A stretch of 64,000 nucleotides of DNA. Source: Eledone cirrhosa. Taxonomy: Eukaryota. Numbering within the stretch: position 1 is the stretch's first letter; every line of letters starts with the position of its first letter. A program made the position numbers and the translations under genes. The notes beneath the pieces are model-generated. The model was given only the letters and a program-made list of their open reading frames with translations. It was not told the DNA's origin and did no database searches. Positions 2-64,000 of this stretch are shown piece by piece. The stretch spans positions 130,634,001 through 130,698,000 of the forward strand of contig OZ024741.1 of the NCBI GenBank assembly GCA_964016885.1. The letters run 5' to 3'.

Positions 2-1528
2 AACGGACACCGAGCAATCTGCAAGGCAGCGAAAAATTTTTTCGAAACCCAAGAGCACTGTACGGTCACGTACCGTACAGTAAGTACAAAATCCCGTAGG
101 GTGGAAAGAGCCACAGAGGCCCAAATACAAAAAGCCTTGGGGTCTGTGTGGCAGAGGAAAACGCACATCACCCGAGGCAAAAAATACGCCACCGTAGACG
201 TACTTTTTGCCACACCCCAGGAGGCAAAGGCCCAATCAGTAGTGACCCTAAGGAGCGAGGAAATGGTGTTGGTGCCCTCCTACTGCGGGCAAAAAATTGT
301 GAGGGTCAAACTGACCCACGTCCCCCCCGGAATGACCCCTTCTTGGCTGGCCGCGTCTGTCCTCGTCGGAATCGAGGACAAAACAACTGTACTGCAAGTA
401 CAGAAAAAAGTAAGAGAAGATTGGGTCGGCTCCTCCATTGAGATGCTAATCCAAACCAACCAGGAGTGCATCGAAGCTATCCCGGATGTGATAGACTTCG
501 ATAACGGCACTCAACTGCCCATAAGTGTTGAGGGCAAACGCCCGAAATGCTTTCGCTGTGGATCGAAGACTCACCTCAGGGCCTTCTGCAACGAGAAGAC
601 CCTGAAAAAGGAGAAAACCCCCCTCCTTCCGAATCCGGCTCCACGGCTACCAGCAACAGGACAAGCGGCAACCAGGAACGATAGGTCCGTGGCACCCATA
701 CCCACTCCACGGAAATCAAAGACAGCAGCAGCAGTGGAAATATTAACAACAACAACAGCAATACCAAATGCAGCTGCAACAGAGACTCCAGTGCAAACAT
801 CACCAACAACAACAAGTGACAGAGTGGAGCTGGTACCCCTCCCCGACCTTACAGAATCAGACATGGAGTGTGAGGTGGGAGAGGGATGGCAAAAGGTCGC
901 AAGAAGGCACAAACGCAGAAGCAGCGCATCGTCGCCTTTGAAAAGGGAGGAAAGAAATGAGAAAAGGGTAAAGTCTACTGCAAAGAGACCCACAGCAGCA
1001 ACACCACCAACACCATCACCACCCACACCAGCACCACCATCACCACCGGCGACAACCCCACCGCCAACAACACCTTCAACACCACCACCACAAGCACCAA
1101 CATCGCAAACACAACAACAAAACACACACACCCAGCAACAACGACAAGAAAATAGCAGAACCACACCCCACCCCCAGAAAAACAAATGCACGGCAATAAA
1201 CACACACAACAAGAAACTAATGACTTACATAATTGAACACACAGACATTTCACAACAGGACTACATAATACCAGCACCAATCAAAACGCCAACTAACATA
1301 AGACTGCTAAAAATAGCACAGAAACAATACACAAACATTAAAACGAAATTCCCCAACGCAGTTGGTGATTTCAGGGACCTAGGAGGAACCATTAATCGAA
1401 GAGTATATTCAGACATTCTCTTAGAAGAGGCGACGACCAGCCGAAGGGACGATTCAACGGTCCCTTCACCAGACGATCAAGTGAAAAGGGATGTAAAAAC
1501 CATCCCTCCTCTACCAAAAGTACGGTAA
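2..1528 (+). CDS. Tx1 ORF1 (type A), nucleic-acid-binding protein with CCHC zinc knuckle; open from window start
   Basis: CX2CX4HX4C knuckle CFRCGSKTHLRAFC, Pro/Thr-rich linker, basic patch. Frame is open upstream of the 101 call (NGHRAICK...KSRRVERATE). Confidence 0.88.
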   Translation, partial: NGHRAICKAAKNFFETQEHCTVTYRTVSTKSRRVERATEAQIQKALGSVWQRKTHITRGKKYATVDVLFATPQEAKAQSVVTLRSEEMVLVPSYCGQKIVRVKLTHVPPGMTPSWLAASVLVGIEDKTTVLQVQKKVREDWVGSSIEMLIQTNQECIEAIPDVIDFDNGTQLPISVEGKRPKCFRCGSKTHLRAFCNEKTLKKEKTPLLPNPAPRLPATGQAATRNDRSVAPIPTPRKSKTAAAVEILTTTTAIPNAAATETPVQTSPTTTSDRVELVPLPDLTESDMECEVGEGWQKVARRHKRRSSASSPLKREERNEKRVKSTAKRPTAATPPTPSPPTPAPPSPPATTPPPTTPSTPPPQAPTSQTQQQNTHTQQQRQENSRTTPHPQKNKCTAINTHNKKLMTYIIEHTDISQQDYIIPAPIKTPTNIRLLKIAQKQYTNIKTKFPNAVGDFRDLGGTINRRVYSDILLEEATTSRRDDSTVPSPDDQVKRDVKTIPPLPKVR

Positions 1529-1563
1529 GTGGTCTTTCCCATCTTTTCCACTCTATTTTAAAC

Positions 1564-4500
1564 ATGACCTCACTCAGAATAGGCAGCATAAATGCGCGTG
1601 GCTTGGGGTCGTCATGGAAGCAGGGTCACCTGCTCAACGACCTCAGGTCACTAAACATAGATGTAGTGGCCATCAGCGAGACCAGAATCTCCGAAGCACG
1701 GGCCTTCGCACCGATCTTCGGCGGCTACGATGTGTACGCATCTCCCAGCCGTCCTGGATCGGGTGGAGGAGTTGCTGTGCTTTTTCGGAGAGGTTTGGAT
1801 CTCGCCATACGGGCCATCTTCCTGGACCCAGAGGGTAAGCTGGTGGTGCTGGACGTGACCAGCGGAGACGGGCAAGCTTTCAGGCTAGTGGCCGTCTATG
1901 CCCCGACAGGAGCAGGGCGGCCTGATTTCTTCCGGCGTCTGGAGACCTTTCTTGGAACGTCCCGCTCTTTAGTGTTAGTGGGCGACTGGAACGGGATCTT
2001 AGATGCACGCTGGGACTGTGTGGGATTAGCGGATAGGGGTGGAGGGTGCAAGAGCCTCACCAACCTGCTCAGGCGTTTTGAACTGTCTGACAGGTACCGA
2101 TTGGATTTCCCGAATGTGCCAATGTGGACTTGGACAAACCGCATAGGGTCATCCAGATCATATCTAGATAGAGTATTTTGTAGGGAAATAGATAGGTCTA
2201 GCATAGGCTGTCCACAATTCAAGATAGTCAGCTACACGGACCACAAATTCGTGATCTGTGTGCTTGACTTAGATAGGCTTCATAGACGAGGACCCGGCTA
2301 CTGGAAGCTAAACGCGTCCTTACCAGCGCGCAAGGCCTACAGAGACCGGATTAGCGAACTAGTTAAGCGGGCGTTGACGGGGGCCATCGTCAACAACAAG
2401 TGGTGGTTTGCTCTGAAAAGAGCGATTAGAATAGAATCGATTAGGTTTAGTAAGGCTTTAGCAATAGAGAAAAATAGAGCAGAGGGAGAACTAGTTAGAA
2501 AATTAGACGAGGCGCTTAGCAAAGGCATTGCGACCGACGTGCTTGCGGCGAAATTGGCCCTTGACCAATTCTTCAATGCAAAGCACGAAGGCTGCGTTGT
2601 CAGAGCTAGGGTGCGTGCTCTCAGACACGAGGGGACGAAAGCCGTTCAATGGGCCCGAGTGGCGGAGGCGCGTCGTGGCAACAAAGCCACGATCCGGTCT
2701 TTGGTGGACCACGACGGGCGCATGCTACTCGATCCCGGGCAAATGTGTGAAGCTTTTCAGCGACACTTCGCTCAGCTGTTCGGGGGCAGCGGGGGGCCGG
2801 GTAGAGGGATGGACTTTAGTGTCTACCTCGACGGACTGCCGCGGCTCTCGGCCACTGAGGCGAAGTGTTGCGAAAAGCCGATAACAGCCGCTGAAGTACG
2901 GGAGGCAATGACTGGCTGCACAAGGGGTAAATCGCCTGGTTTAGATGGTCTGCCCTATGAACTTTACGTACAGATGCCAGACTTGTTCGGAGGCCTCTTG
3001 GCGGACGTCTACTGCAACTGGCAACAGAACGGGAGAATTCCCAGTTCTGTGAGCCGAGGAGCGGTGGCACTGCTGAGAAAGGATCCGAACAAGGGAGATA
3101 ACATAGACAATTTCCGGCCCATAACTCTGCTAAACACAGAGTTTAAGATTTTGGCCAAGGTGCTAGCAAAGAGGTTGGCGCTTGTCGTTGGTGGTTTGGT
3201 GGGAGAGGCGCAGACATGCGCCATTCCCGACAGATCCATCCACGACAACCTCCACCTCATGCGATACATCGTAGAGAGGGTAGCTAGGGAACCTGGCACG
3301 GGTGGGTCCTTGATCAATTTAGATCAGTCGAAAGCTTTCGATAGGGTCGACCATCGTTACCTAGCGGCAGTCCTGAGGGCGGCTGGCTTTGGGCCCGTCT
3401 TCAGAGGCTGGATCGCTGCCATGCACAGCGACATCTGCTCTGTAGTGAGAGTGAACGGTCACCTGTCGGAACCGTTCAACATCATGCGCTCGGTCCGCCA
3501 AGGATGTCCCCTCTCGTCCCTCTTGTACGTATTGACTCTCGAGCCATTACTGCACAAACTGGAGACGTTGAGGGGAGTCCCGCGCGAACTAGGATGCGGA
3601 AGATCCGTGTCAGCATATGCGGACGATGTCACCGTAGTGGTGTCGAACGCCAAACACATCGAGGCGATCGGCACTACACTAAGAGAATACGAAGCGGTGA
3701 CAGGAGCAATGATCAACCAGGAAAAGTCAGTGGGCCTGCAGCTCGGCACCTGGAGAGGCAGGTCCATGCCGTCCAACAGCGTCGTCGGGCGCTGGACGGA
3801 CGGACCGGTTAAATTGCTAGGGGTCTGGTTCGGTCCGGACCTCCAGACGGACAAAAACTGGGACGAGGTGACGAGCAGGGTGGCTTCTCTCACCCAGAAA
3901 TGGGCGGAGAGGAAGCTATCCCTGAAAGGTCGAGCGGAGGTGGCTAACGCGTACATCGCGTCTGTCATCTGCTACCGCCTAACCGTCGTACCTTGTCCTA
4001 AGCCTCGCCTGACTGCGCTGGAGCGTTTGCTCTTTCGCTTTTTGTGGAAGGGACGTGCTCCGATGGTCAGGCGGTCCATCTGTTGTCAACACCCGCTACG
4101 TGGAGGGCTGGGCATGCCGTGGCTGATGATGCGCAGGTACGCGCTCAGGCTACGACATCTCCACCTCTTCCTCGACGGTGATCAGGTGTGGTCGCCGTTT
4201 GCTAGACGCGTTTTTCCCCAGCTCGTTTCCTTGACGGAGCTGCAGTCCTGGGTCAAGCGAAGACCGAGAGGGAGCGCCTGGAGACTGGAATGTCTTCAGG
4301 CGCTCACAGCCCTCGACCAATCGGGCAATGTGATCGGTGGAAACTCCACCTCGGCGTTCTATAGAGGATTAGTGGAGGGGAAGAGCGACGACGTACTTGG
4401 GGAAACTCTAGGCGTCGACGAAAATCAACTAGCCAATCTCTTCGGAAGAACTTTCGGGCCAGGGCCTATGGACAACTTCCAGAAATCTCTGGCCTGGCAG

Positions 4501-4983
4501 TGCTACCGAGGAGCCTTGCCAGTTCGGGATAAACTCTACAGGCATGGAGGTGCCGTCAGCCGGGCATGTCCGAGATGCGCGCAGGGCGACGAAACCGTCC
4601 TGCACGCACTCGTCCAGTGTCCGAAAATTGCTGACTTGTGGGTTTATGTCGAACACCTGCTGTCGCGTTTAGGACGGATCCAGCTATCATCTGAGTCTAT
4701 CGTGAGGATTGCCCCGCCCTCCTCCTTTAGCCGGGAAGGGCAGGCAGTTTTTATCTGTCTGGTGGCCATGGCGAAAGAGATAGTATGGTGGACACGTTTG
4801 AAAGGGCTGAAGACGAGCACTTACCTCTTCGGTGATGCTCTGATTGACTTTTTCAAATTTCATTTGAAAAGGAAAATCAGAGTAGAGAAGGAAGTGCTCT
4901 CTTCCCAACATTTTGTTGAAAGATGGGTGAGAGAAGCAAGAATGGCCCGAGTGAATGGGCCGACTCTGAGTATATATCTGTAA
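1564..4983 (+). CDS. Tx1 ORF2: APE endonuclease + reverse transcriptase + C-terminal Cys/His finger, intact 1139 aa
   Basis: APE motifs SINARGL, SETR, VYAP, GDWN, YLDR, TDH; GYWKLN; RT motifs KSPGLDG, FRPITLLN, DQSKAFDRVDH, RQGCPLS, YADD; CPRC...H...C. Confidence 0.96.
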   Translation: MTSLRIGSINARGLGSSWKQGHLLNDLRSLNIDVVAISETRISEARAFAPIFGGYDVYASPSRPGSGGGVAVLFRRGLDLAIRAIFLDPEGKLVVLDVTSGDGQAFRLVAVYAPTGAGRPDFFRRLETFLGTSRSLVLVGDWNGILDARWDCVGLADRGGGCKSLTNLLRRFELSDRYRLDFPNVPMWTWTNRIGSSRSYLDRVFCREIDRSSIGCPQFKIVSYTDHKFVICVLDLDRLHRRGPGYWKLNASLPARKAYRDRISELVKRALTGAIVNNKWWFALKRAIRIESIRFSKALAIEKNRAEGELVRKLDEALSKGIATDVLAAKLALDQFFNAKHEGCVVRARVRALRHEGTKAVQWARVAEARRGNKATIRSLVDHDGRMLLDPGQMCEAFQRHFAQLFGGSGGPGRGMDFSVYLDGLPRLSATEAKCCEKPITAAEVREAMTGCTRGKSPGLDGLPYELYVQMPDLFGGLLADVYCNWQQNGRIPSSVSRGAVALLRKDPNKGDNIDNFRPITLLNTEFKILAKVLAKRLALVVGGLVGEAQTCAIPDRSIHDNLHLMRYIVERVAREPGTGGSLINLDQSKAFDRVDHRYLAAVLRAAGFGPVFRGWIAAMHSDICSVVRVNGHLSEPFNIMRSVRQGCPLSSLLYVLTLEPLLHKLETLRGVPRELGCGRSVSAYADDVTVVVSNAKHIEAIGTTLREYEAVTGAMINQEKSVGLQLGTWRGRSMPSNSVVGRWTDGPVKLLGVWFGPDLQTDKNWDEVTSRVASLTQKWAERKLSLKGRAEVANAYIASVICYRLTVVPCPKPRLTALERLLFRFLWKGRAPMVRRSICCQHPLRGGLGMPWLMMRRYALRLRHLHLFLDGDQVWSPFARRVFPQLVSLTELQSWVKRRPRGSAWRLECLQALTALDQSGNVIGGNSTSAFYRGLVEGKSDDVLGETLGVDENQLANLFGRTFGPGPMDNFQKSLAWQCYRGALPVRDKLYRHGGAVSRACPRCAQGDETVLHALVQCPKIADLWVYVEHLLSRLGRIQLSSESIVRIAPPSSFSREGQAVFICLVAMAKEIVWWTRLKGLKTSTYLFGDALIDFFKFHLKRKIRVEKEVLSSQHFVERWVREARMARVNGPTLSIYL

Positions 4984-5234
4984 ACTAAAGGTGGAAAACT
5001 GGGAGAGGGCACTTGCCTTGGTGGTCAGGGTCATTGTGGCTTTTTACTGGGCTTTCTCCACAAATGTCCCTCCGAAGTCTCCCCCCTATTGGGGAATTTT
5101 TCATTGTTATTTTTTGTTACATCCTCTGTTTTTGTTTTTTACACGCAGAAATGCCCATTTGTACCGTCCTGCATTGTCCTGCACTGTCCTTAATGTCTAC
5201 TTTATGTAAACCCTTGTGGTTAATAAAGAAATCA

Positions 5235-5288
5235 TTATTATTATTATTATTATTATTATTGTTATTATTATTATTATTATTATTATTA
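5235..5288 (+). repeat. (TTA)n microsatellite at Tx1 3' junction
   Basis: direct reading. Confidence 0.95.
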
Positions 5289-5379: not shown

Positions 5380-8300
5380 TTGCATTTATCTTGCTTTATG
5401 TTCATACGAGTTATCACCAAGTCACAACCAGTGACCTCAAGAGACAAGATCCGCCATGTTCAGGAAAGAACATACATACACACACATGCATCTTTAGGTG
5501 TTTAGACTTGTGATGTACTTATATTGACAGAATCTTCCTTAGTATATGGGCAGTTCCCATTAGTACTATCTTTTGTATTTCTCCTATACGCGGGTTTCCT
5601 GGGATTTGCGATAAGTAATCAATAGACCCCTTAGGTATCATTCCCAGAGCGCCTACAACCACTGGTATTGTTTTAGTTCTCAATTTCCACATTTTTCAAA
5701 TTTCTATCTCCAGGTCCTTATACTTGCTCAATTTTCCAATGTTTTTATAGATACATTCTTGTCTATTGGAACAGACATATCAATTAGCAGGCATACCCTC
5801 TTTTTAAAGTCCTTCAATATTATATCAGGTCTATTTGCATCTATTTTTCGGTCTGTTTGGATGCTAAAGTTCCACAGGATTGAGATGTGATCTTTTTCAA
5901 GTATGGGAGGTGGTTGATGCTCCCACCAATTCTTTTGATGGGGCAGGTCAAAATGCTTACACATTATCCAATGTATGTATTGTGCAGCTCTGTCATGCCT
6001 GTTTAGGTATTCGGTTGGAGCTATAGGACTGCACGTTGAAATTATATGGTCAATGGTCTCTGGTTGTTTTTTGCATACACGGCATAATGGGCTGCATCCA
6101 TTTTTAATATGTTGGCTTGGTAATTTTTTGTTGGCAGACACTGATCTTGTGCTGATATAATCAGTCCTTCACTCTCCGATTTCAGTCCAGGGGATGCCAA
6201 CCACTGATGGGTTAAAGTTTTGTCAACATCAGGATTGTTAGCTCGTTCTGGGTATTTTCCATACTGAGGCTTTTCTTGCCATTTCTTAGCCAGTTTCTGT
6301 AGCAGTTCTTTCTTTGCAGTTACTTTTACCTGCTTTGCTTTTTCTGTGTTTTCCATTTCAGCAGTAAATGGGACTTCTGAAATTTGTAGTCCATTACTGT
6401 ATCTTTGTGCATCTTTTGTAATGGAATATGATCTTTTGATGCTTTCGTGTTTCAAAACGAGTTTGATCATCCAATCATGTGATTCCCTTAGATATGTAGA
6501 TAATCCAATTGTCGCAGTTTTCAACGCAATGTCTAACTGGATTAACCCACGTCCTCCTTCTTTCCTAGGGAGATATATTCTATCTATATCTGCCTTAGGG
6601 TGATGCATTCTGTGCATGGTTAAGAATTTTCGAATTTTTGTATCGAGCCTACGGATCTCTGTGCTTGATCAGTTGATGACATTGTAACTGTAGGTTACTA
6701 CAGGTATGGCAAGCGTGTTTATGGCATCGATCCTATTCCTTGCATTCAATTCCGTTCTTAAGATCGCTCTTACTCTGCGGTAACATTCCTTCCTTATCCT
6801 TTCCCTCATTGTCGAGTGCTTGATTCCGTCTCCTTCACAAGCACCTAGATATTTGTAAGTTTTTTCTTGATCAAGTTCTCTTATCACGTTCCCCCGATCA
6901 AGATTAATGTCTGAACTCTTCAGCAGCTTTCCTCTGGTGAACGTTGCTTTGGCGCATTTATCTAGTCCAAACTCCATTTTAATGTCATCACTGAACTGCT
7001 CCACAGTGGATAATAGCCCTTGCAATTGTTCATCATTTTTTGCAAATAGTTTCAGGTCATCCATGTAGAACAGGTGATTAATGGTTTTGTCATAGACTTT
7101 ATATCCATGTTTTGTTTCATTGAGCATTTTACTTAATGGTATAAGTGCGATGCAGAATAAAAGCGGTGATAAAGAGTCACCCTGAAAAATTCCACAATTA
7201 ATATTAACTTCTCCAGCTTCCAGTGATTTTGTTTCACTATTCAAAAGGAGTGTCGTTTTCCATGTCTTCATACTGAATGACAAAAACCTCCTGACAACGG
7301 GGGATATTTTGAAAATCTCTAAACATTTTTCAATCCAACTGTGTGGCAAACTATCGAATGCTTTTTTATAATCTATCCAAGCAATCGATAGATTTTTGTG
7401 TCTATTATGACAATCTTCCAGTATCATTTTGTTAACCAGAAGCTGATCCTTACAGCCATATGAGCCTCGTTTACACCCTTTCTGCTCAATGGGAAATAGG
7501 TCATTTGTTATCAGGTGGTCATATGTGTATTCAGTTAGGACTGATGTTAAAATTTTATACATTGTGGTCAAGCAAGTTATCGGTCTGTAATTTTGGGGAT
7601 TGTTTGTCTCATCATTCTTCGGAAGCAGGAATGTAATGCCGTTAACTAGCCATGATGGTATCTTTTCTGGCTCCTTAACTATTTCATTGTAAAGTTGGGC
7701 TAACAGCTCATGAGACTCTGTGAAGGCATTTATCCAAAAGTTTTGTATTTTGTCTTTTCCTGGGGATTTCCATTTGCTGGTTTTTCTTAGAGCCAAGCGC
7801 AACTGTTCAACTGTTATATTTTCCCATATTTGTTCCTCAAGGTGAGCTGTATCTTTCATTTGTCTGTCTATCCATGGGGCATGTATGTTATGAAATGTTT
7901 CTTCGGCCCAGATCTTTTCCCAGAATTCTTGCACTTCCTCCTTGGGTGGTATTGATTTAGCAGTTATTGTTGACTTACCAATTATTCTGTAGAAGTTTCT
8001 TTGGTTGTTTTTGAACATATTATTGTCCTTATAGAATCTAGATCGTTTTTCAAAGCGCCTTATACGAGCAGCTTTAGCCGACACTTTTTGCTTGATTATT
8101 TCTATCAACATGTCTATGTCACATGTTGATTTTATACTGTACTTTTCTTTCAATTTTCTAAGTTTAGTTTGTTTAACATGTTCACCTACTTTATATTTTG
8201 TTAAAATTTCTATGTCAGATCGGAGAAGGTTTATTTGGCGATTGATGTTCTCTTGCCAAGTAGATTTCTTGTGGGAATTCCTTTGTATTTTCATCTTCAC

Positions 8301-9340
8301 TCCACATAAGTGAGTGGTGACTTTAGCCGATGCATAATAGAGATGATTTAAATCAGTAATGTTTAGTTTGTTTGTGATGATAATGTTTTTGAGAATTATG
8401 TTAGTCTTGTGTATTATCTTTTGGTTCTGTTTGGAGTTCTGGATCTTAGGGAGGGTGTCTCGTTGTCCCATGTCAGATTCTTTCATTTTCATCCATTCGA
8501 TCAAAATTTCATCCTTCAAGTTGGCAAGTTCATTCTCATTCCTTTCTTTATCATTTACGATCTCATTATTTTCATTTGGAGTTTCATCCTGAGCATGCAC
8601 TCCCTCCACTTTTTCGATCCTTTCTTTAATTTGTTCTGTTGCCAGTGATTCCGCCCCATCCCTGGGATTCGAAGTGTTACAGTTTACCTCGTTTTCACTG
8701 ACACATGTTTCATTTTCCCTTCGCTGACTTTGTGCTAATAGCTTGATCTGATCAATTTCTATATCAGTTAGTAACTTTTTTCTTACAATATTTCTTCGTA
8801 TATTGGCTAGTTTGTTACTGTCAGTATAGCCTCTGTTTTCGGGATGTTTCTTTTTCCAGTTGATATATCTCTGTTCTGTATTCGATGTATTTGATGGGTA
8901 GTACATGGCAGTGTAGAAAGCCTCAAGGACTTCTTTATTATCTTCCCTTGACCATTTTTCTCTCTTTTTCTTTGGATTTCTTGGTGGTGAGCATGGAGGG
9001 CCAACAGTAGGAGTATTCCGGTTATGGGAGGTCTCCAGCTCCGAAGTGATGGGATGGTTTGAACCATTAGCTGATTTTTCGACCCCAGTCTGGTTCCTCT
9101 CTGAGGGACGCGGCCCTTTTTTACCCGGGTGACGGCCGATCCGGTATGAGATTTTATCATTAGACATTTACTTTATTTTGTCGCGTTTTATCCTTATCCG
9201 CCAAGGGGTAATCATTTCGTGTTACCACTTCTAGAACGAGTGTCAACCAAGACTAGAGGGGTCGTTCTCCCCTAGAGACAAGGCTATTCCCCGCCGGCCG
9301 CCATCCCGGTATTTCTTGGTCACGGGGTTTTCTTTTTGTT
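5380..9340 (-). mobile_element. R4/Dong-like RLE non-LTR retrotransposon, near full length, copy A
   Basis: Single RT-RLE reading frame with short UTRs; 3' end abuts (TAA)n on its own strand. Confidence 0.88.
5519..9167 (-). pseudogene. RT + CCHC + restriction-like endonuclease ORF, disrupted
   Basis: RT motifs WKSPGKD, YRPITCL, DYKKAFDS, GIFQGDSLSP, YMDDLK; CRVC...H...C, RHD, RPDI, IDMSVP. In-frame TGA at 6669 and two 1-nt deletions (~6100, ~5735) relative to copy B. Confidence 0.88.
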
Positions 9341-10376: not shown

Positions 10377-11633
10377 TGCATTTATCTTGCTTTATGTTCA
10401 TACGAGTTATCACCAAGTCACAACCAGTGACCTCAAGAGACAACAAGGTCCGCCATGTTCAAGAAAGAACATACATATTCACACATGAATCCTTAGTGTC
10501 TAGACTTGTGATGTACTTATATTGACAGGATCTTCCTTAGTATATGGGCAGTTCCCATTAGTACTATCTTTTGTATTTCTCCTATACGCGGGTTTCCTGG
10601 GATTTGCGATAAGTAGTCGTTAGACCCCTTAGGTATCATTCCCAGAGCGCCTACAACCACTGGTATTGTTTTAGTTCTCAATTTCCACATTTTTCCAATT
10701 TCTATCTCCAGGTCCTTATACTTGCTCAATTTTTCAAATGTTTTTATAGATACATTCTTGTCTATTGGAACAGACATATCAATTAGCAGGCATACCCTCC
10801 TTTGAAAGTCCTTCAATATTATATCAGGTCTATTTGCATCTATTTTTCGGTCTGTTTGGATGCTAAAGCTCCACAAGATTGAGATGTGATCTTTTTCAAG
10901 TATGGGAGGTGGTTGATGCTCCCACCAATTCTTTTGATGGGGCAGGTCAAAATGCTTACACATTATCCAATGTATGTATTGTGCAGCTCTGTCATGCCTG
11001 TTTAGGTATTCGGTTGGAGCTATAGGACTGCACATTGAAATTATATGGTCAATGATCTCTGGTTGTTTTTTGCATACACGGCATAATGGGCTGCACCCAT
11101 TTTTTATTATGTTGGCTTGGTAATTTTTTGTTGGCAGACACTGATCTTGCGCCGATATAATCAGTCCTTCAGTCTCCGATTTCAGTCCAGAGGATGCCAA
11201 CCACTGATGGGTTAAAGTTTTGTCAACATCAGGATTGTTAGCTCGCTCTGGGTATTTTCCATACAGAGGCTTTTCTTGCCATTTCTTAGCCAGTTTCTGT
11301 AGCAGTTCTTTCTTTGCAGTTACTTTTACCTGCTTTGCTTTTTCTGTGTTTTCCATTTCAGCAGTAAATGGGACTTCTGAAATTTGTAGTCCATTACTGT
11401 ATCTTTGTGCATCTTTTGTAATGGAATATGATCTTTTGGTGCTTTCGTGTTTCAAAACGAGTTTGATCATCCAATCATGTGATTCCCTTAGATATGTGGA
11501 CAATCCAATTGTTGCAGTTTTCAACGCAATGTTTAACTGGATTAACCCACGTCCTCCTTCTTTCCTAGGGAGATATATTCTATCTATGTCTGCCTTAGGG
11601 TGATGCATTCTGTGCATGGTTAAGAATTTTCGG

Positions 11634-11637
<4 letters not shown>
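10376..11637 (-). mobile_element. R4/Dong-like element copy B, 5'-truncated, with open C-terminal ORF (10517-11617)
   Basis: Near-identical to 5380-6640; CCHC and PD-(D/E)xK RLE motifs intact; (ATT)n on both sides (10325-10375, 11636-11667). Confidence 0.9.
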
Positions 11638-11667
<30 letters not shown>

Positions 11668-11876
11668 GGCGACCTACGTAGGAAATCGTATTATCGTGAG
11701 CTCCGCAAAGGTTTGTTATTTCCGTTTGTTTAAAAATTGCCATTTATGGAAAATTTTATTGTAAACTGTTTATAAGCACACATACATTGTTTTCCGAAAA
11801 GGACACCCAAAAAGATTGGGGCCTTGTGCCCAAAATTTTAACTTTTATTATTATCCAAAAATTTCTTTGAAAAAAA

Positions 11877-13865
11877 ATGGCTAATTCCCCTCTGCACGAA
11901 GCAGCTGAAAGCCTTCCTCACAAAATAACACCTCACACCGACACCACCATTGTAAATGTTACTACGTTTGCCAACACAAAAAAAAATATAAGCAGTAGCA
12001 ATATTTTAAATTTGTCTCAGGCAGACATTCATTTCCCGCCATTACCAATGACTGCAGGTGTTAAACCCTCCACCACCACCACCACCGCAACAACCACCAC
12101 CACCACCACCACCACCACCGCGACAACAGAAACAAAAGAAGAAAAAAATAAATTAACTCGTGACGTCGAAATGAAATCAAGCAAAATGGACTCTTCCCCA
12201 CCAAAGACGACTGACGTCACAACCACCACAACTGAAAATAAAATTAATATTAACGATAGCAACAACAACAACAATGACATTATAAAACCGACCCTCAGTT
12301 TCGCCATCGTAGCAAAACAATTCGAAGCGTTCACGGTAACCCAAGAAGATTTAGAAAATGCCAAACAAATGGTAAAGAAAGATGGGTACAGGGTCAGCCT
12401 CACCCCCCACCTAATAAAATGGAGCATCGGCGCCTGTGCACCGTGTCGTATAGAACAATAAATGTAAAATCGCGCCGAGTGGAACGGGCATCCGAGTCCC
12501 AAATCCAAAAAGCTTTGGGACATGTGTGGGCAAGAAAAACCCACATCAGACGTGGGCAAAAGTATGGAACCGTGGATGTGTTCTTTGAAACACCAGAGGA
12601 GGCTAGAGAACACTCCATGGCCCCATTAAAAAGTGACGACCTCACACTCGTCCCAAGCTATTGTGGCCAGAGACTCGTAAAGATCAGGGTGACCCACGTT
12701 CCACCGGCCATCGAAATTCCCTGGCTAATAGCAGCTGTCCTCACCGGCATCGAAGCCAACACGAAAATAATAGCAGTAGCAAAAGAAAAGCAGGAAAACT
12801 GGTCCGGATCTGGGATGGAGCTCCTGATCCAAGCGGACCAAAAAAGCATTGAGGAGATCCCAGAGGTAATAGACCTCACTGACGGCAGCCACCTCACGGT
12901 AATTGTCGAGGGCAGAAGACCTAGGTGTGTCGTTTGTGGTGAAGGAACCCACCTAAGGGCTTTCTGCCCTCAGGCTAAAAGGTTGAGGCCACCTCTCCTA
13001 CCCACCCCAGTGACAAAACCATCAACACCACCAGTAGCAGAGATGGCAGCAACAACTGTAGCAGCAACAACAGAAGCAACTATAACAGCAACAACCCCAG
13101 CAACAGTAGCAAAACCAACACCACTACCACCACCAGCAAAACCAACACCACCACCACCCAACGCTTCAGAACTAGCACCAGCGCCTACACCATCCACCAC
13201 ACCACAACCAAAACTAACGGCTGTGGAGGATTTTCCACTCCCCGGCCTATCACAACTGGAGACAGATTGTGACGACGAGGAGTGGGAAACGATATCCGGA
13301 AAAAAAAAAAAACCAAAAAAGAAAAAATTCTCTTCCTTCCCCCTCCAAAAACAAAATACAGAGGGAAACAAATAAACTAAGAAACAAAAAAGTTAGGACA
13401 GATATGCCACCATCCACACCAGCATCACCAACCCCATCAACCCAAACACCAACACCATCACCATCATTATCCCCAGCACCACCATCACCTACACCACAAA
13501 AGTCACCAAAATTCGAAACAGAAACAAACCCACAACAAACGCAAACAAAACAAAACAACCAAAACGATACACACTACACAGCATTAAATTTGAACAACAA
13601 GCAATTATTACACTACATCCAACACAACACCAGCATCACAGAAAAAGACTACACAACAACCCCAAAATTCACACCACCTCCACACATACAAATCACTCGC
13701 ATCACACAGAAAACGTACATGACACTAAAACAAAAATTCCCCAAAGACATCGGAGACTTCCGACAAGCACTCTCCAGGAGGATTTATAAGGACATCCTTC
13801 CTGAGGAGGCCACAAGCAGTGAAAAGGATGGAAAAGCCGTCCTTCCCCTACGAGAAGTAAGGTAA
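11877..13865 (+). CDS. Tx1 ORF1 (type B), split by frameshifts at a C-run (~12405) and an A-run (~13305)
   Basis: Segments 11877-12461, 12419-13375 and 13269-13865 join into a protein homologous to ORF1 of copy 1; knuckle CVVCGEGTHLRAFC. Confidence 0.82.
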
Positions 13866-13899
13866 GTGGTCTTTCCCATCTTTTCCACTCCTTTTCAAC

Positions 13900-16800
13900 A
13901 TGACCTCACTCAGAATAGGCAGCATAAATGCGCGTGGCTTGGGGTCGTCATGGAAGCAGGGCCACCTGCTCAACGACCTCAGGTCACTAAACATAGATGT
14001 AGTGGCCATCAGCGAGACCAGAATCTCCGAAGCACAGGCTTTCGCACCGATCTTCGGCGGCTACGATGTGTACGCATCTCCCAGCCGTCCGGGATCGGGG
14101 GGAGGAGTTGCTGTGCTTTTTCGGAGAGGTTTGGATCTTGCCATACGGGCCATCTTCCTGGACCCAGAAGGTAAGTTGGTGGTGCTGGACGTGACCAGCG
14201 GAGACGGGCAAGCTTTCAGGTTAGTGGCCGTCTATGCCCCGACAGGAGCAGGGCGGCCTGATTTCTTCCGGCGTCTGGAGACCTTTCTTGGAACGTCCCG
14301 CTCTTTAGTGTTAGTGGGCGACTGGAACGGGATCTTAGATGCACGCTGGGATTGTGTCGGATTAGTGGATAGGGAAGGAGGGTGCAAGAGTCTCACCAAC
14401 CTGCTCAGACGTTTTGAACTGTCTGACAGGTACCGAATGGATTTCCCGAATGTACCAATGTGGACTTGGACAAACCGCATAGGGTCATCCAGATCATATC
14501 TAGATAGAGTATTTTGTAGGGAAATAGATAGGTCTAGCATAGGCTGTCCACAATTCAAGATAGTCAGCTACACGGACCACAAATTCGTGATCTGTGTGCT
14601 TGACTTAGATAGGCTTCATAGACGAGGACCCGGCTACTGGAAGCTAAACGCATCCTTACCAGCGCGCAAGGCCTACAGAGACCGGATTAGCGAACTAGTT
14701 AAGCGGGCGTTGACGGGGGCCATCGTCAACAACAAGTGGTGGTTTGCTCTGAAAAGAGCAATTAGAATAGAGTCCATTAGGTTTAGTAAGACTTTAGCAA
14801 TAGAGAAAAATAGAGCAGAGGGAGAATTAGTTAGAAAATTAGATGAGGCGCTTAGCAAAGGCATCGCGACCGACGTACTTGCGGCGAAATTGGCCCTTGA
14901 CCAATTCTTCAATGCAAAGCACGAAGGCTGCGTTGTCAGAGCTAGGGTGCGTGCTCTCAGACACGAGGGGACGAAAGCCGTTCAATGGGCCCGAGTGGCG
15001 GAGGCGCGTCGTGGCAACAAAGCCACGATCCGGTCTTTGGTGGACCACGACGGGCGCATGCTACTCGATCCCGGGCAAATGTGTGAAGCTTTTCAGCGAC
15101 ACTTCGCTCAACTGTTCGGGGGCAGTGGCGGGCCGGATCGAGGGATGGACTTTAGTGTCTACCTCGACGGACTGCCGCGGCTTTCGGCCACTGAGGCGGA
15201 GTGTTGCGAAAAGCCGATAACAACCGCTGAAGTACGGGATGCAATGACTAGTTGCACAAGGGGAAAATCGCCTGGTTTGGATGGTCTGCCCTATGAACTT
15301 TACGTACAAATGCCAAACTTGTTCGGAGGCCTCTTGGCGGACGTCTACTGCAACTGGCAACAGAACGGGAGAATTCCCAGCTCTGTGAGCCGAGGAGCGG
15401 TGGCGCTGCTGAGAAAGGATCCGAACAAGGGGGATAACATAGATAATTTTAGGCCCATAACTCTGCTAAACACAGAGTTCAAGATTTTGGCCAAGGTGCT
15501 AGCAAAGAGGTTGGCGCTTGTCGTTGGTGGTCTGGTGGGAGAGGCACAGACATGCGCCATTCCCGACAGATCCATCCACGACAACCTCCACCTCATGCGA
15601 TACATCGTAGAGAGGGTAGCTAGGGAACCTGGCACGGGTGGGTCTTTGATCAATTTAGATCAGTCGAAAGCCTTCGATAGGGTCGACCATCGTTACCTAG
15701 CGGCAGTCCTGAGGGCGGCTGGCTTTGGGCCCGTCTTCAGAAGCTGGATCGCTGCCATGCACAGCGACATCTGCTCTGTAGTGAGAGTGAACGGTCACCT
15801 TTCGGAACCGTTCAACATCATGCGCTCGGTCCGCCAAGGATGTCCCCTCTCGTCCCTATTGTACGTATTGACTCTCGAGCCATTACTGCACAAACTGGAG
15901 ACGTTGAGGGGGGTCCCGCGCGAACTAGGATGCGGAAGATCCGTGTCAGCATATGCCGACGATGTCACCGTAGTGGTGTCGAGCGCCAAACACATCGAGG
16001 CGATCGGCACTACACTAAGAGAATACGAAGCGGTGACAGGAACAATGATCAACCAGGAAAAGTCAGTGGGCCTGCAGCTCGGCACCTGGAGAGGCAGGTC
16101 CATGCCGTCCAACAGCGTCGTCGGGCGCTGGACGGACGGACCGGTTAAATTGCTAGGGGTCTGGTTCGGTCCAGACCTCCAGACGGACAAAAACTGGGAC
16201 GAGGTGACGAGCAGGGTGGCTTCTCTCACCCAGAAATTGGCCGAGAGGAAGCTATCCCTGAAAGGTCGAGCGGAGGTGGCGAATGCGTACATCGCATCCG
16301 TCATCTACTACCGCCTGACCGTCGTACCTTGTCCTAAGCCCCGCCTGACTGCGCTGGAGCGTTTGCTCTTTCGCTTCTTGTGGAAGGGACGCGCTCCGAT
16401 GGTCAGGCGGTCCATCTGCTGTCAACACCCGCTACGTGGAGGGCTGGGCATGCCGTGGCTGATGATGCGCAGACACGCGCTCAGGCTACGACATCTCCAC
16501 CTCTTCCTCGACGGTGATCAGGTGTGGTCGCCGTTTGCAAGACACGTTTTTCCCCAGCTCGTCTCCTTGACGGAGCTGCAGTCCTGGGTCAAGCGAAGAC
16601 CGAGAGGGAGCGCTTGGAGACTGGAATGTCTTCAGGCGCTCACAGCCCTCGACCAATCGGGCAATGTGATCGGTGGAAACTCCACCTTGGCGTTCTATAG
16701 GGGATTAGTGGAGGGGAAGAGCGACGACGTACTTGGAGAAACTCTAGGCGTCGACGAAAATCAACTAGCCAATCTCTTCGGAAGGACTTTCGGGCCGGGG

Positions 16801-17319
16801 CCTATGGACAACTTCCAGAAATCCCTGGCCTGGCAGTGCTACCGAGGAGCTTTGCCAGTTCGGGATAAACTCTACAGGCATGGAGGTGCCGTCAGCCGGG
16901 CATGTCCGAGATGCGCGCAGGGCGACGAAACCGTCCTGCACGCACTCGTCCAGTGTCCGAGCATTGCTGACTTGTGGGTTTATGTCGAACACCTGCTGTC
17001 ACGTGTAGGACCTATCCAGCTATCAGCTGAGTCCATCGTGAGGATTGCCCCGCCCCCTTCCTTTAGCCTGGAAGGGCAGGCAGTTTTTATCTGTCTGGTG
17101 GCCATGGCGAAAGAGATAGTATGGTGGACACGTTTGAAAGGGCTGAAGACGAGCACTTACCTCTTCGGTGATGCCCTGATTAACTTTTTCAAATTTCATT
17201 TGAAAAGGAAAATCAGGGTAGAGAGGGAAGTGCTCTCTTCCCAGCATTTTGTTGAAAGATGGGTGAGAGAAGCAAGTATGGCCCGAATGAATGGGCCTTC
17301 TCTGAGTATGTGTCTGTAA
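13900..17319 (+). CDS. Tx1 ORF2 (APE-RT), intact 1139 aa
   Basis: Colinear with 1564-4983; about 30 aa differences by manual comparison. Confidence 0.96.
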   Translation: MTSLRIGSINARGLGSSWKQGHLLNDLRSLNIDVVAISETRISEAQAFAPIFGGYDVYASPSRPGSGGGVAVLFRRGLDLAIRAIFLDPEGKLVVLDVTSGDGQAFRLVAVYAPTGAGRPDFFRRLETFLGTSRSLVLVGDWNGILDARWDCVGLVDREGGCKSLTNLLRRFELSDRYRMDFPNVPMWTWTNRIGSSRSYLDRVFCREIDRSSIGCPQFKIVSYTDHKFVICVLDLDRLHRRGPGYWKLNASLPARKAYRDRISELVKRALTGAIVNNKWWFALKRAIRIESIRFSKTLAIEKNRAEGELVRKLDEALSKGIATDVLAAKLALDQFFNAKHEGCVVRARVRALRHEGTKAVQWARVAEARRGNKATIRSLVDHDGRMLLDPGQMCEAFQRHFAQLFGGSGGPDRGMDFSVYLDGLPRLSATEAECCEKPITTAEVRDAMTSCTRGKSPGLDGLPYELYVQMPNLFGGLLADVYCNWQQNGRIPSSVSRGAVALLRKDPNKGDNIDNFRPITLLNTEFKILAKVLAKRLALVVGGLVGEAQTCAIPDRSIHDNLHLMRYIVERVAREPGTGGSLINLDQSKAFDRVDHRYLAAVLRAAGFGPVFRSWIAAMHSDICSVVRVNGHLSEPFNIMRSVRQGCPLSSLLYVLTLEPLLHKLETLRGVPRELGCGRSVSAYADDVTVVVSSAKHIEAIGTTLREYEAVTGTMINQEKSVGLQLGTWRGRSMPSNSVVGRWTDGPVKLLGVWFGPDLQTDKNWDEVTSRVASLTQKLAERKLSLKGRAEVANAYIASVIYYRLTVVPCPKPRLTALERLLFRFLWKGRAPMVRRSICCQHPLRGGLGMPWLMMRRHALRLRHLHLFLDGDQVWSPFARHVFPQLVSLTELQSWVKRRPRGSAWRLECLQALTALDQSGNVIGGNSTLAFYRGLVEGKSDDVLGETLGVDENQLANLFGRTFGPGPMDNFQKSLAWQCYRGALPVRDKLYRHGGAVSRACPRCAQGDETVLHALVQCPSIADLWVYVEHLLSRVGPIQLSAESIVRIAPPPSFSLEGQAVFICLVAMAKEIVWWTRLKGLKTSTYLFGDALINFFKFHLKRKIRVEREVLSSQHFVERWVREASMARMNGPSLSMCL

Positions 17320-17561
17320 ATTAAAGGTGGAAAACTGGGAGAGGGCACTTGCCCTGGTGGTCAGGGCCACTGTGGTCTTTTAATGGGCTTTCTCCACAAA
17401 TGTCCCTTGGAAGTCTCCCCCCTATTGGGGAATTTTTCTTTGTTATTTTATTTCAACCTCTGTTTTTTTACACGCAGAAATGCCCATTTGTACCGTCCTG
17501 TATTGTCCTGTACTGTCCTTAATGTCTACTTTATGTGAACCCTTGTGGTTAATAAAGAAAA

Positions 17562-17619
<58 letters not shown>

Positions 17620-20600
17620 GTTCTTTGAGTCACAGTCATTGATGTTAGTTAACTGGAAAGTTTGTTGAAATGCCCGCCCAGCCAGTGGGATGGCGTCTTC
17701 TTATGGTTAAAACAGCACGAAGAAAAGGGCCTCAGTACCCTGCGCGTCAATCGGGCCATTACACGACGGCGGAGTGCAACCCGAGCGACGAGAGGCTGCT
17801 AAGAATCACAGGTTCCCGAAGGCCGCCAAGGAACAGGACTAACTTTGCCCCATATGCACCTACAACTGAAGGTCTTTGGCAGGGGGGCAAGGACTGAACC
17901 ACCTCATGGAGGAGAAGAAGAAGATCAGGTGCGACGTGTTAGGGCTGTGCGAGACCCGCCAGAAGAAGGAGGCGAGTTTACGATGGCAAGATGGATGCGC
18001 CTTGAGACTCGGGAAAGCAGAGGGTGCCAGATCGGTCGGATGTAAGGAATGGGCTTCGAAGGTCGCTTCTTGCCAGTTCATATCGTCACGGATTGGTGTA
18101 CTGAACGCGAACCTCTCAGGGAAGGCCACCCTCACGATCGTCCAGACCTACGCTCCCACAAGTGCCAGCGACGACGATGAGGTGGAAGAATTCTATCGCC
18201 AGCTAGACAAAGTGCTAGCTGTGAAGTCCACTTACACCGTCGTGATGGGAGACTTCAACGCAAAGGTCGGACAGGGACGGCAAGGGGAAAAGTATGTTGG
18301 AAGATTCGGCCTAGGAGAGCGAAATGAGAGAGGAGAGCGTCTGGTCACCATGGCGGAGGTGAGACGGTTCTACATCGGAAACAGCCTATTCAGAAAGAAG
18401 GAGAAGAGATGGACCTGGGTATCGCCAAATTTTGAGCACCGAAACGAGATTGACTACATCTTGGTCGACAAGCGACGCATACTACAGGACGTCTCCGTCA
18501 TAACGCCATTCAACACTGGCAGTGATCATCGTCTGGTGAGAGCGAGGGTCGTCATCGACCGGACGAGGGAGAAGAACGCGCTGCATTTGGCGTCGAAGGG
18601 AGAATGCGTCCGGGTCTTCAACGAGGCGCAGCTGCAGGAAGCAGGAAAAGTGGCGTCAAGGAGACGGCATAGACGCTGACTACGACTCACTGATAAGGAA
18701 ACTGAAGGAGTGCTTGAGGAACGCTAAGGGTGTGTGCCCGAGGGAGTGGAAGAGAAGAGTCTCGGAGGAAACTATGAAGTTGCTTAAGAAGAGGAAGAAT
18801 ATGAAGAGGACACCTGAAAATCACCTCGAATATTCCCTTCTCAACAGAGTGATACGTCAACAAATGAAGAGTGAATTCGAGGCATACCGGATGGAGAAGC
18901 TCCTGAAGGCCGCAAAGGAAAAGAAGGGCCTCAAGAAATGCGAAAGGGACATGACAATGTACAGATCGGAGGTGACGACCCAGAAAAACACAGCTGGAGT
19001 ACCGGTCAGCGACAAGAGTGAGGTGGAAAAGGTTTGCGAAGACTTCTACACTAAGCTCTTCAAGTCTGCCGGGAATGTGCAGCCGTTGCCGTCACTCCAA
19101 CAGGAAGAAAATGTGCCACCCATCCTTGTCGGTGAGGTCGAAAGAGCCGTCGGCTTGATGAAAAGCGGAAAGGCGCCAGGGAAAGACGGCATAACATCGG
19201 AGGTGTTGAAGTCAGGCGGAGAGCAGCTCTGGAAAATCCTCGCCGAGCGATTCACACACTATCTTGACGAGGGAAGAATACCCTCGCAGTGGAAAGAGTC
19301 GAATACCATCCTGCTATACAAGAACGGCGATAGAGAAGATCTGAAGAACTACCGACCCATATGCCTGCTGTCTCACGTGTACAAGCTGTTCACGAAGATA
19401 ATCCTGATCAGGTTATCACGTCATCTGGACGAACAGCAACCGAGAGAGCAAGCCGGCTTCCGGAAAAACTACAGCACGATGGACCACATATTTATTCTGA
19501 CACAACGGCTTGAGCGAGCAAAAGAGTACAAGATGCCTCTGCGTCGCGTTCGTAGACTACGAGAAGGCCTTCGACAGCGTCGAAATCAATGCAGTCCTGA
19601 ACTCGCTGCAGAGGCAAGGAGTCGAGGCGCAATACGTTCAACTGCTCAGGGAGGCGAGTTCCGGATGCACCACCGACATCTGCTGTCATCACCCGTTCAA
19701 GTGCCGGTCGAGAAGGGAGTGAAGCAAGGAGATACGATCTCTCCAAAACTTTTCACCGCGTGTCTCGAGCAGATCATCAGAGGCATTGACTGGCAAGGTG
19801 GTGTCAACATCAACGGCGAGATACTTACCCACCTCCGTTTCGCTAATGACATCGTGCTCATCGCTGAAACCGCGGATCAGCTTCAGACCATGCTGACGGA
19901 GCTCGACATCAAAAGCTCTGCAGTAGGCCTCAAGATGAACCGCATGAAAACGAAGTTCATGCGGTCCGACAACGTACCAACAGGTCGAATGGTGGTTGGC
20001 GGTGATGAAATAGAGGAGGTGGAGGAGGTGGAGGAATACGTCTACCTGGGACAAGAAGTGAACATGCGCCGAGACATTGAGAGGGAGATCTCGCGGAGAG
20101 TAAGGGCCGGATGGAAGGCGTTCAACGGCATAAGGGATGTGCTCAAGGGGAGGTTGGACAAGACCACCCGCGCCAACCTCTTCAATAGCACAGTTTTACC
20201 TGCAATGTTATATGGCAGTGAAACTTGGGCTACAACGAAGAGAGAAGAGCAGAGGCTGGTAACGGCTCAAAGAGCCATGGAGAGATCAATGCTAGGAATC
20301 TCGTTGAGAGAGCACATCAGGAGCGAAGTCATCAGACAGAAGTCCGGCGTGAGGGACGTCATCACGGAATATATGCGCAGCAAGTTCAGATGAGCTAGAC
20401 ACGTCGCCTGGTTCACCGATAATCGGTGGACCCGCGCAGTTGCCGAGTGGTACCCGCGCGAGCGGAAACGACCACTCGGAAGGCCTCCATGAGGGTGGAG
20501 TTACGATTTTAAGAATACGATTGGGAATACATGGATGAGGAAAGCACGATCCAGAGAGGAATGGGCGGCGTGCTGTGACCAGCGGCGCTGAATGGACGCC

Positions 20601-31333: not shown

Positions 31334-33599
31334 GGCGACCTACGTAGTAAATCGTATCATCGTGAGCTCCGCAAAGGTTTGTTATTTCCGTTTGTTAAAA
31401 ATAGCCATTTATGGAAAATTTTTATTGTTAACCATATATAAGCGCACATACATTGTTTTCCGAAAAGGACACCCAAAAAGATTGGGGCCTTGTGCCCAAA
31501 ATTTAAACTTTTATTATTATCAAAAAATTTCTTTGAAAATAAAATGGCTAATTCACCTCTGCACCAAGCAGCTGAAAGTCTTCCTCACAAATTAACACCT
31601 CACACCGACACCACCATTGTAAATGTTACTACGTTTGCCAACACTAAAAAAAATATAAGCAGTAGCAATATTTTAAATTTGTCTCAGGCAGACATTCATT
31701 TCCCGCCATTACCAATGATTGCAGGTGTTAAAGCCTCCACTACCACCACCACCGCGACAACCACCACCCCCACCACCACCGCAACAACAGAAACAAAAGG
31801 AAAAAATAAATCAACTCGTGATGTCGAAATATTTTCAACCGAAATGGACTCTCCCAAACCGACTTTCACTGACGTCACCACCACCACAGCTGAAACTAAA
31901 ATTAATAATAACAAAAATAACGATAGCAACAACAACAACGACATTAAAAAAACCACCCTGAGTTTTGCCAGAGTAGCAAAACAGTTCGAAGCATTTACGG
32001 TAACTCAGGAGGATTTAGAAAATGTCAAACAAATGGTAAAGAAAGATGGGTACAGGGTCAGCCCCCCCCCCACCTAATAAAATGGAGCATCGGCGCCTAT
32101 GCACCGTGTCGTATCGAACAATAAATGTAAAATCGCGCCGAGTGGAACGGGCATCCGAGTCCCAAATCCAAAAAGCTTTGGGACATGTGTGGGCAAGAAA
32201 AACCCACATCAGACGTGGGCAGAAGTATGGAACCGTGGACGTGTTCTTTGAAACACCAGAGGAGGCTAGAGAACACTCCATGGCCCCATTAAGAAGTGAC
32301 GACTTCACACTCGTCCCAAGCTATTGTGGCCAGAGACTCGTAAAGATCAGGGTGACCCACGTTCCACCGGCCATCGAAATTCCCTGGCTAATAGCGGCCG
32401 TCCTCGCCGGCATCGAAGCCAACACAAAGAAAATAACAATAGCAAAAGAAAAGCAGGAGAACTGGTCCGGATCTGGGATGGAGCTCCTGATCCAAGCGGA
32501 TCAAAAAAGCATTGAGGAGATCCCAGAGGTAATAGACCTCACTGACGGCAGCCACCTCACCGTAATTGTCGAGGGCAGAAGGCCTAGGTGTGTCGTTTGT
32601 GGTGAAGGAACCCACCTAAGGGCTTTCTGCCCTCAGGCTAAAAGGTTGAGGCCACCTCTCCTACCCACCCCAGTGACTCAACCATCAGCACCACCAGTAG
32701 CAGAGATGGCAGCAACAACTGTAGCAGCAACAACAGAAGCAACTATAACAGCAACAACCCCAGCAACAGTAGCAAAACCAACACCACCACCACCAGTAAA
32801 ACCAGCACCACCACCACCCAACGCTTCAGAACTAGCACCAACGCCTACCCCATCCACCACGCCACAACCAAAACTAACGCCTGTGGAGGATTTTCCACTC
32901 CCCGGCCTATCACAACTGGAGACAGATTGTGACGACGAGGAGTGGAAACGGTATCAGGAAAAAAAAAAAGAAACCAAAAAAGAAAAAATTCTCTTCCTTC
33001 CCCCTCCAAAAACAAAATACAGAGGGAAACAAATAAATTAACAAACAAAAAAGTTAGGACAGATATGCCACCATCCACACCAGCATCACCAACCCCATCA
33101 ACCCAAACACCAACACCATCACCATCATTAACCCCAACACCACCATCACCAACACCACAAAAGTCACCAAAATGCGAAACAGAAACAAACCCACAACAAA
33201 CGCAAACAAAACAAAACAACCAAAACGATACACACTATACAGCATTAAATTTGAACAACAAGCAATTATTACACTACATCCAACACAACACCAGCATCAC
33301 AGAAAAAGACTACACAACAACCCCAAAATTCACACCACCTCCACACATACAATTCACTCGCATCACACAGAAAACGTACATGACACTAAAACAAAAATTC
33401 CCCAAAGACATCGGAGACTTCCGACAAGCACTCTCCAGGAGGAGTTATAAGGACATCCTTCCTAGGAGGCCACAAGCAGTGAAAAGGATGGAAAAACCGT
33501 CCTTCCCCTACGAGAAGTAAGGTAAGTGGTCTTTCCCATCTTTTCCACACCTTTTCAACATGACCTCACTCAGAATAGGCAGCATAAATGCGCGTGGCT
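31334..33599 (+). mobile_element. Tx1 copy 3: intact 5' end and type-B ORF1 (frameshifted), truncated ~40 nt into ORF2
   Basis: Colinear with 11668-13939; breaks at ...GCGCGTGGCT. Confidence 0.92.
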
Positions 33600-35165: not shown

Positions 35166-35299
35166 TATATAAGATGGTTTTGATGATGATGATGATGATG
35201 GTTGTGAGGTATTAGCGACGTGCGAGTGATTTTGCATTTGTTATGATAGTATTGGAGTGTTAGTCGGAGTATTGATGGTAATGGAGGTGTTGATGGTGG

Positions 35300-63600: not shown

Positions 63601-64000
63601 GTTGTCGTTGTCATTATTGTTGTTGTTGCTGTCGTCGTTGTTATTGTTGTTATTACCGTTGTTGTCGTTGTCATTATTGTTGTTGTTGCTGTCGTCATTG
63701 TTATTGTTGTTATTGCCGTTGTTGTCGTTGTCATTATTGTTGTTGTTGCTTTCGTCGTTGTTATTGTTGTTATTGCCGTTGTTGTCGTTGTCATTATTGT
63801 TGTTGTTGCTTTCGTCGTTGTTATTGTTGTTATTGCCGTTGTTGTCGTTGTCATTATTGTTGTTGTTGCTGTCGTCGTTGTTATTGTTGTTGTTGCTGTT
63901 GTTGTCGTTGTCATTAGTGTTGTTGTTGCTGTCGTCATTGTTATTGTTGTTATTGCCGTTGTTGTCGTTGTCATTATTGTTGTTGTTGCTTTCGTCGTTG
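60630..64000. repeat. AAC/GTT-derived minisatellite, ~60-63-bp unit with higher-order duplications, runs off window end
   Basis: Unit like GTTGTCGTTGTCATTATTGTTGTTGTTGCTGTCGTCGTTGTTATTGTTGTTATTGCCGTT. Confidence 0.92.

Follow-up and report, generated by a model that had tools for sequence, protein, structure and literature searches.

A conserved splice donor at the end of ORF1 in Tx1-like LINEs of Eledone cirrhosa probably serves distant acceptors and not the adjacent ORF2

The stretch of the Eledone cirrhosa genome analysed here (GCA_964016885.1, contig OZ024741.1, positions 130,634,001 to 130,698,000; 64,000 nucleotides (nt), hereafter the window) contains three copies of a long interspersed nuclear element (LINE) with two open reading frames (ORFs). 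ORF1 of these elements ends in a conserved 5' splice site (donor), which probably splices to distant acceptors and not across the 52–53 nt separating it from the first AG of ORF2. The evidence for this comes from three hybrid subfamilies, in each of which the ORF1 of one family is joined, exactly at its donor, to the ORF1 tail and ORF2 of another. All copy counts and relatives given below were drawn from one 3.0-Gb genome, within which the conservation of the donor is likewise known.

ORF2 of copy 1 contains APE endonuclease (PF03372), reverse transcriptase (RT; PF00078) and C-terminal zinc-binding (PF13966) domains according to Pfam, whereas ORF1 of the same copy had no Pfam match; its translation displays a CCHC knuckle (C-x2-C-x4-H-x4-C). 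The LINE copies start and finish at (ATT)n runs and are arranged as head-to-tail arrays. We describe the family as a two-ORF, microsatellite-targeting Tx1-like LINE, the Tx1 label being derived from this architecture and from a sequence-only reading of the window, and not from RT phylogeny: the RT/ORF2 tree took in families of this genome alone. The exact ORF2 start of the family to which copies 1 and 2 belong occurs 4,613 times in the genome. All three copies lie on the plus strand. Copy 1 (subfamily A1; 515 candidates, with 40 of 40 scored copies near-identical) begins approximately 770 nt before the window, following an (ATT)n run, so that the window holds the 3' part of its ORF1 (2–1528; whole ORF1 ∼695 aa, including the CCHC knuckle). 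It is followed by an intact ORF2 of 1,139 aa with its own ATG (1564–4983), and by a poly(A) signal (5222–5227) and (ATT)n tail or target, together spanning 5222–5287. Copy 2 (subfamily A2) is full length (11668–17617; ORF2 at 13900–17319), with a 5' untranslated region (UTR) and ORF1 unlike those of copy 1. Copy 3 (A2 type, 31334–33599) ends after 13 ORF2 codons. In both copies 2 and 3 ORF1 is frameshifted.

The donor GT is found at positions 1525, 13862 and 33522 in the three copies, exactly where the sequence-only reading had placed it. In copy 1 the site (1522–1530) matches the consensus at 8/9 positions and overlaps the TAA stop codon of ORF1 (1526–1528), while in copy 2 (13859–13867) the match is 9/9. 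By chance, a donor matching at 8/9 or more would be expected in ∼1.8% of 60-nt windows, and the ORF1-end donor is the sole site of at least 8/9 on the sense strand of the 6,018-nt copy-1-type element. ORF2 of copy 2 holds a second 9/9 donor consensus (∼14168–14176), which is dictated by the coding sequence. The spacer between the ORFs, which in copy 1 (1529–1563) lacks AG, folds weakly (no shuffle control) and, as had been pointed out, is rich in pyrimidines (76–81%, compared to 43–48% in the flanks).

It had also been proposed that the donor was kept in spite of divergence of the adjoining ORF1 sequences. Within the window this does not count as independent evidence, since identity between copies 1 and 2 is 96% all the way from 1480/13818 to the 3' end. 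Copy 1 is a hybrid, joined 43 nt before its donor; agreement between the two donors is therefore inheritance. Conservation is nevertheless real in more distant lineages. Among relatives gathered via their ORF2 starts, a consensus-like, U1-type site is found where the structural ORF terminates, in nine lineages (A–E, F0 and G–I; a single copy each for E, G, H and I), the ORF2s of which are 86–89% (C and D) and ∼70% (B and F) identical to that of A at the nucleotide level. Scores of at least 8/9 were obtained for 15/18 copies of A1, 33/40 of A2, 28/33 of B, 32/35 of C, 7/11 of D, 16/19 of F, all six of F0 and 2/5 of C', as well as 0/7 of B'. The stop codon that the donor overlaps or precedes is TAA, TGA or TAG depending on the lineage, and the spacers are dissimilar in sequence and 28–52 nt in length, with 73–81% pyrimidine in the nine types tabulated. 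Because the donor persists while the stop codon, phase, and length and sequence of the spacer vary, the motif looks selected in this cross-lineage comparison by eye. A metagenome scan with P0010 retrieved 0 loci.

A coincidental resemblance of an Arg or Gly codon plus stop to a donor, inherited without selection, is a very improbable explanation. All lineages do share a common ancestor, and the second 9/9 site of A2 demonstrates that coding sequence can dictate such a motif; however, persistence through the changes listed above, the low expectation by chance and the breakage of the hybrids precisely at the donor all speak against it.

One of the hybrids is subfamily A1, to which copy 1 belongs. 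Its C-like ORF1 runs up to the donor of its own lineage, the last base of the 5' parent (lineage G/C) being 1481, and sequence of the copy-2 family starts at 1482. The 43-nt ORF1 tail thus acquired (1482–1524) is bounded in the copy-2 family by a CAG and the donor, and duplicates the homologous segment located just upstream. The CAG after which A1 was joined is seen in the A2 tail at 13817–13819, 42 nt upstream of the donor. Two further hybrids came from a search for B donors not continued by GT. Of the 26 matches, 17 were joined to a foreign 23-nt tail followed by donor, spacer and ORF2 (hybrid F) and three to a point further upstream in F (hybrid F', one more copy of which appeared in a later survey), the remaining six being small deletions. 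In a tested copy of hybrid F the ORF1 tail is identical to B at 432 of 450 positions, whereas ORF2 is 95–96% identical to F0 and 79–81% to B. In hybrid F (for example L192) the join shifts the frame and ORF1 seems, by eye, to run past the ATG of ORF2; the subfamily has still amplified.

All three joins follow the same pattern: the 5' parent is used exactly up to its donor, the 3' parent begins right after a CAG, and a homologous stretch comes to be present twice; at the join the two parents have just the 2-nt AG in common. The signature of a 5' partner ending at a donor and a 3' partner starting after AG characterises 3/3 out-of-register joins between families in the donor-anchored and ORF2-start searches. 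Surveys of first 189 and then 59 regions around ORF2 starts yielded A1, F and F' as the sole joins of this kind, other rearrangements being within-family indels or truncations. The donors are the LINEs' own, with no sign of an origin in host-gene exons. Moreover, the sequences predicted for the parents are present in the genome. When 48 F-type ORF2 starts were considered (16 hybrids, 14 ending or rearranged before the join site and 18 informative), 17 of the 18 informative F0 copies carried the predicted CAG directly before the join site. The predicted native parent of A1 was likewise found, by eye: locus L353 has the A1 ORF1 tail, then, precisely where A1 is joined, a donor, followed by a different ORF2 (L353 and L246 differ at ∼2 of 69 nt, also by eye). 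Hybrid partners use the same target microsatellite, (ATT)n in lineages A, C and D and (TATC)n in B and F, and mixed tandems exist, such as a C'-type element positioned directly before the 5' end of an A2 copy (L278). Judging from these sequences, the hybrids very probably originated by splicing, and the three exact donor/CAG joins suggest that the spliceosome has linked this donor to distal acceptors, swapping ORF1 modules between LINE families.

How this could happen may be envisaged as follows. The RNA copied to DNA would normally be unspliced, with ORF2p produced by termination-reinitiation. Read-through RNA from the head-to-tail arrays in shared microsatellites, or a second RNA acting in trans, would be the source of the joins: occasionally, the donor of one element would be spliced to a cryptic CAG located 23–98 nt upstream of the donor of the next. 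The outcome would be an entire two-ORF element, equipped with a new 5' UTR and ORF1 and able to amplify. The downstream donor would likely help to define the cryptic acceptor, and the route might be cis-splicing within arrays, which would be rare, or trans-splicing. Upstream trans-splicing has been demonstrated in a plasmid system (PMC6381186).

The everyday function of the donor is a separate matter. It is likely retained for the production of a spliced, ORF1-only RNA and/or for protection of the full-length RNA by U1, as in plant Copia elements. By that analogy, an ORF1-only RNA is the role we would tentatively put forward, while U1 binding alone seems rather doubtful. A candidate partner for the former is an acceptor-like site in the 3' UTR of copy 1 (5120–5148), where a U-rich tract is followed by CAG (5146–5148); A and D have it. 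A regulatory U1 site, which the sequence-only reading had kept as a fallback, fits a donor that is conserved and very likely used. We consider it an even prospect that the built-in donor would both yield an ORF1-only RNA and serve as a recurrent shuffling joint, at which the host spliceosome would graft the promoter and ORF1 of one family onto the ORF2 of another in tandem arrays and so found new autonomous families. If so, these would include a family that ranks among the youngest of the genome.

Several observations weigh against splicing as the origin of the hybrids. The support comes from genomic copies and not from RNA, the events number three, with two distinct donors in total, and both F and F' first came to light through a search anchored on the donor. 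In A2, the pyrimidine tract of the acceptor is poor. No same-family duplication was found at these sites, though same-family tandems are common. As for the ORF1-only RNA, the 3' UTR acceptor is absent from this position in C, C', B and F0, being confined to A and D, and no ORF1-only processed copies were found in the donor-anchored searches with A, C and B. Furthermore, the shared AG suits template switching as well. The donor could be a U1-binding site and nothing else, the hybrids having been produced by RT switching templates at AG microhomologies without exon ligation. In-register mosaics between families are indeed common; L272, L274 and L235 combine B and F0, either as an F0-type 5' part ending in B-type sequence at the 3' side or as F0 carrying an ORF1 of B type, and point to frequent switching of templates. 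In about 20 of the 48 F-type copies, element sequence is lost in the 85 nt that precede the ORF2 ATG, suggesting a zone where RT stops, and a single-copy deletion (L129) begins at the A donor boundary without AG. The losses in F and F0 (L211–L240, L321–L333) are mostly 5' truncations into microsatellite, situated around the donor, and are rare in the C copies read. However, template switching has to account for 3/3 inter-family out-of-register joins at the donor boundary and after a CAG, for which the AG-microhomology null is ∼1e-3 on the donor side and ∼1e-2 for the CAG (a hand estimate, milder if few breakpoints are viable). We therefore regard this alternative as unlikely, and splicing as the better account of the hybrids.

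The sequence-only reading had put forward another use of the donor, namely excision of a 52–53 nt intron to produce a Gag-Pol-like ORF1-ORF2 fusion protein, which would act in trans on unspliced RNA. Its description of the site is accurate: the first AG lies at 1576–1577 and 13912–13913, within ORF2 codon 5, the intron lengths are 53 and 52 nt, the junction is in frame in copies 1 and 2, and an AG 9 nt downstream is in frame as well. Between these two AGs it had passed over a TAG (AG at 1581–1582), which is out of frame in copy 1. The three AGs lie in ORF2 codons 5–8 (1575–1586) in phases 2, 1 and 2. We searched the genome with a gapped pattern with shared anchors, allowing all three as acceptors. 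Copies precisely lacking the intron, the trace proposed for such splicing, numbered zero against 4,261 unspliced copies (95% upper bound 0.07%); in human L1, ∼2% of full-length copies are spliced (131/6,609; PMC5860796). Similarly, none of the non-GT continuations of the A (0/9; eight small changes and one non-AG deletion), C (0/6; all small changes) and B (0/26, all accounted for) donors was joined to its own ORF2 start, donor-anchored patterns being blind to joins in which the next base is G or the second base T.

Comparison across subfamilies gave a divided answer: the donor is conserved and the phase is not. A fusion would keep the reading frame in A1, A2, E, F0, H and probably B, using the AG at ORF2 codon 5, but the donor phase shifts between sister families, so that the frame is lost at the first AG in C, C', G, B' and probably D. 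Compared with A2, C has a 1-nt indel immediately before the donor, and its first AG leads to an immediate stop, from which the next AG would rescue it; in B' and G, both with few copies, an in-frame AG is missing from the vicinity of the ORF2 start. Being in frame is in any case a weak criterion, because AGs in two phases sit within 10 nt. In old B copies the ORF1 phase is ambiguous (of 14 copies, six are in phase 0, six in phase 1 and two in phase 2), as it is in D. The distance to the first AG ranges from 34 to 54 nt (42 nt in F0), at or under the minimum of ∼50 nt implied for the fly (∼35 nt from 5' site to branch and ∼15 nt from branch to 3' site; PMC5762160), although fly introns of 40–50 nt are spliced (PMC5762160) and human introns of 43–56 nt exist (PMC4463651).

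A weak search for a longer, fused relative found no match to ORF1 among 7,999 candidates; a protein search with the APE region gave four matches, and the best 150 protein representatives lacked an N-terminal extension of ORF1 size, their matches starting at residue 110 at the latest. Contigs from runs of unspecified type (X5, X6 and X7) cross the copy-1 junction unspliced, while X1 does not reach it. Of the joints listed for copy 1 (15 of 48) none is at the donor, and neither is any of the four listed for copy 2, all in X2; contigs drop rare forms, so these counts carry no weight either way. Finally, ORF2 has retained its own ATG across lineages. Taken with the absence of joined copies, the short-intron fusion finds poor support and is unlikely; a fusion protein acting in trans appears quite improbable.

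The LINEs described here resemble the Tx1-clade elements Kibi and Koshi (PMC4494074) and the L1-Tx1 elements of Octopus vulgaris (PMC13282606) in the zinc-knuckle ORF1, the APE-RT-zinc ORF2 and insertion into microsatellites, but differ in the donor at the end of ORF1, which goes unmentioned in the available parts of these sources ('splic' has no match in the main text of PMC13282606 as available). Bicistronic RNA, a short spacer and an ORF2 with its own ATG are shared with L1 and SART1, the ORF2s of which are translated by termination-reinitiation (PMC5972666); it is from this likeness that reinitiation is assumed here, while no spacer donor is described in the part of that source consulted. 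A parallel to the donor is provided by the shGAG system of the Arabidopsis Ty1/Copia element EVD, the structural ORF of which likewise ends in a conserved U1 site; there, splicing yields an RNA for the structural protein and U1 protects the full-length RNA (PMC5580714). EVD, however, is a single-ORF LTR element with a demonstrated intron and premature polyadenylation, whereas the present case is known from genomic sequence alone, and a conserved acceptor matching that of EVD was not found.

With respect to the hybrids, SVA_F1/MAST2 and LAVA (PMC4859970) and the mRNA/L1 5' chimeras (PMC13174262) are alike in that a 5' partner, cut off precisely at its donor, has been linked to an acceptor of the retroelement, and in that the resulting chimera is mobile and can give rise to a subfamily. 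In those cases the donor is contributed by a host exon, which adds a promoter or 5' end; here, it is the conserved donor of the LINE itself, and a whole 5' UTR and ORF1 move between autonomous families. The mechanism proposed by analogy thus resembles that of SVA_F1 and the mRNA/L1 chimeras, yet would use the element's own donor and shift ORF1 between autonomous families. Human L1 SpIREs (PMC5860796) are likewise genomic fossils of LINE RNA splicing. They are deletions within an element and mostly dead on arrival, in contrast to the amplified inter-element joins with a short duplication seen here; A1, F and F' are not SpIREs.

These joins bear on the question of how LINE families come by a new 5' UTR and ORF1. 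A splicing origin of new 5' ends has been shown for host-exon hybrids only, and for L1 the swapping of 5' UTRs by splicing was speculated upon by Law and Burns (PMC13174262), as far as the available text goes. Exchange of ORF1 at a LINE's own donor was not reported in the literature searched, a scope outside which Repbase entries and subscription journals fall. Three family-founding swaps with exact donor/CAG joins, both parents of which reside in the same genome, make the idea testable. In addition, the conserved donor suggests that some LINEs set the ratio of ORF1p to ORF2p by RNA processing, as do plant Copia elements.

The remainder of the window contains other repeats. Between copies 1 and 2, the minus strand at 6042–9167 and 10517–11635 carries another RT element (RVT_1) and an unassigned frame of 371 aa. 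A frameshifted APE-RT element, which we presume to be RTE-like, lies directly past copy 2 (17870–20393). Long ORFs at 60693–64000 and 35282–36903 are spurious, being due to a tandem array of 53 copies of a 63-bp unit and to a repeat rich in TGG. Outside this genome, an Octopus sinensis gene model annotated as 'tectonic-3-like' holds an endonuclease fragment 64% identical to residues ∼38–101 of P0001, representing either exonisation or an artefact of the model.

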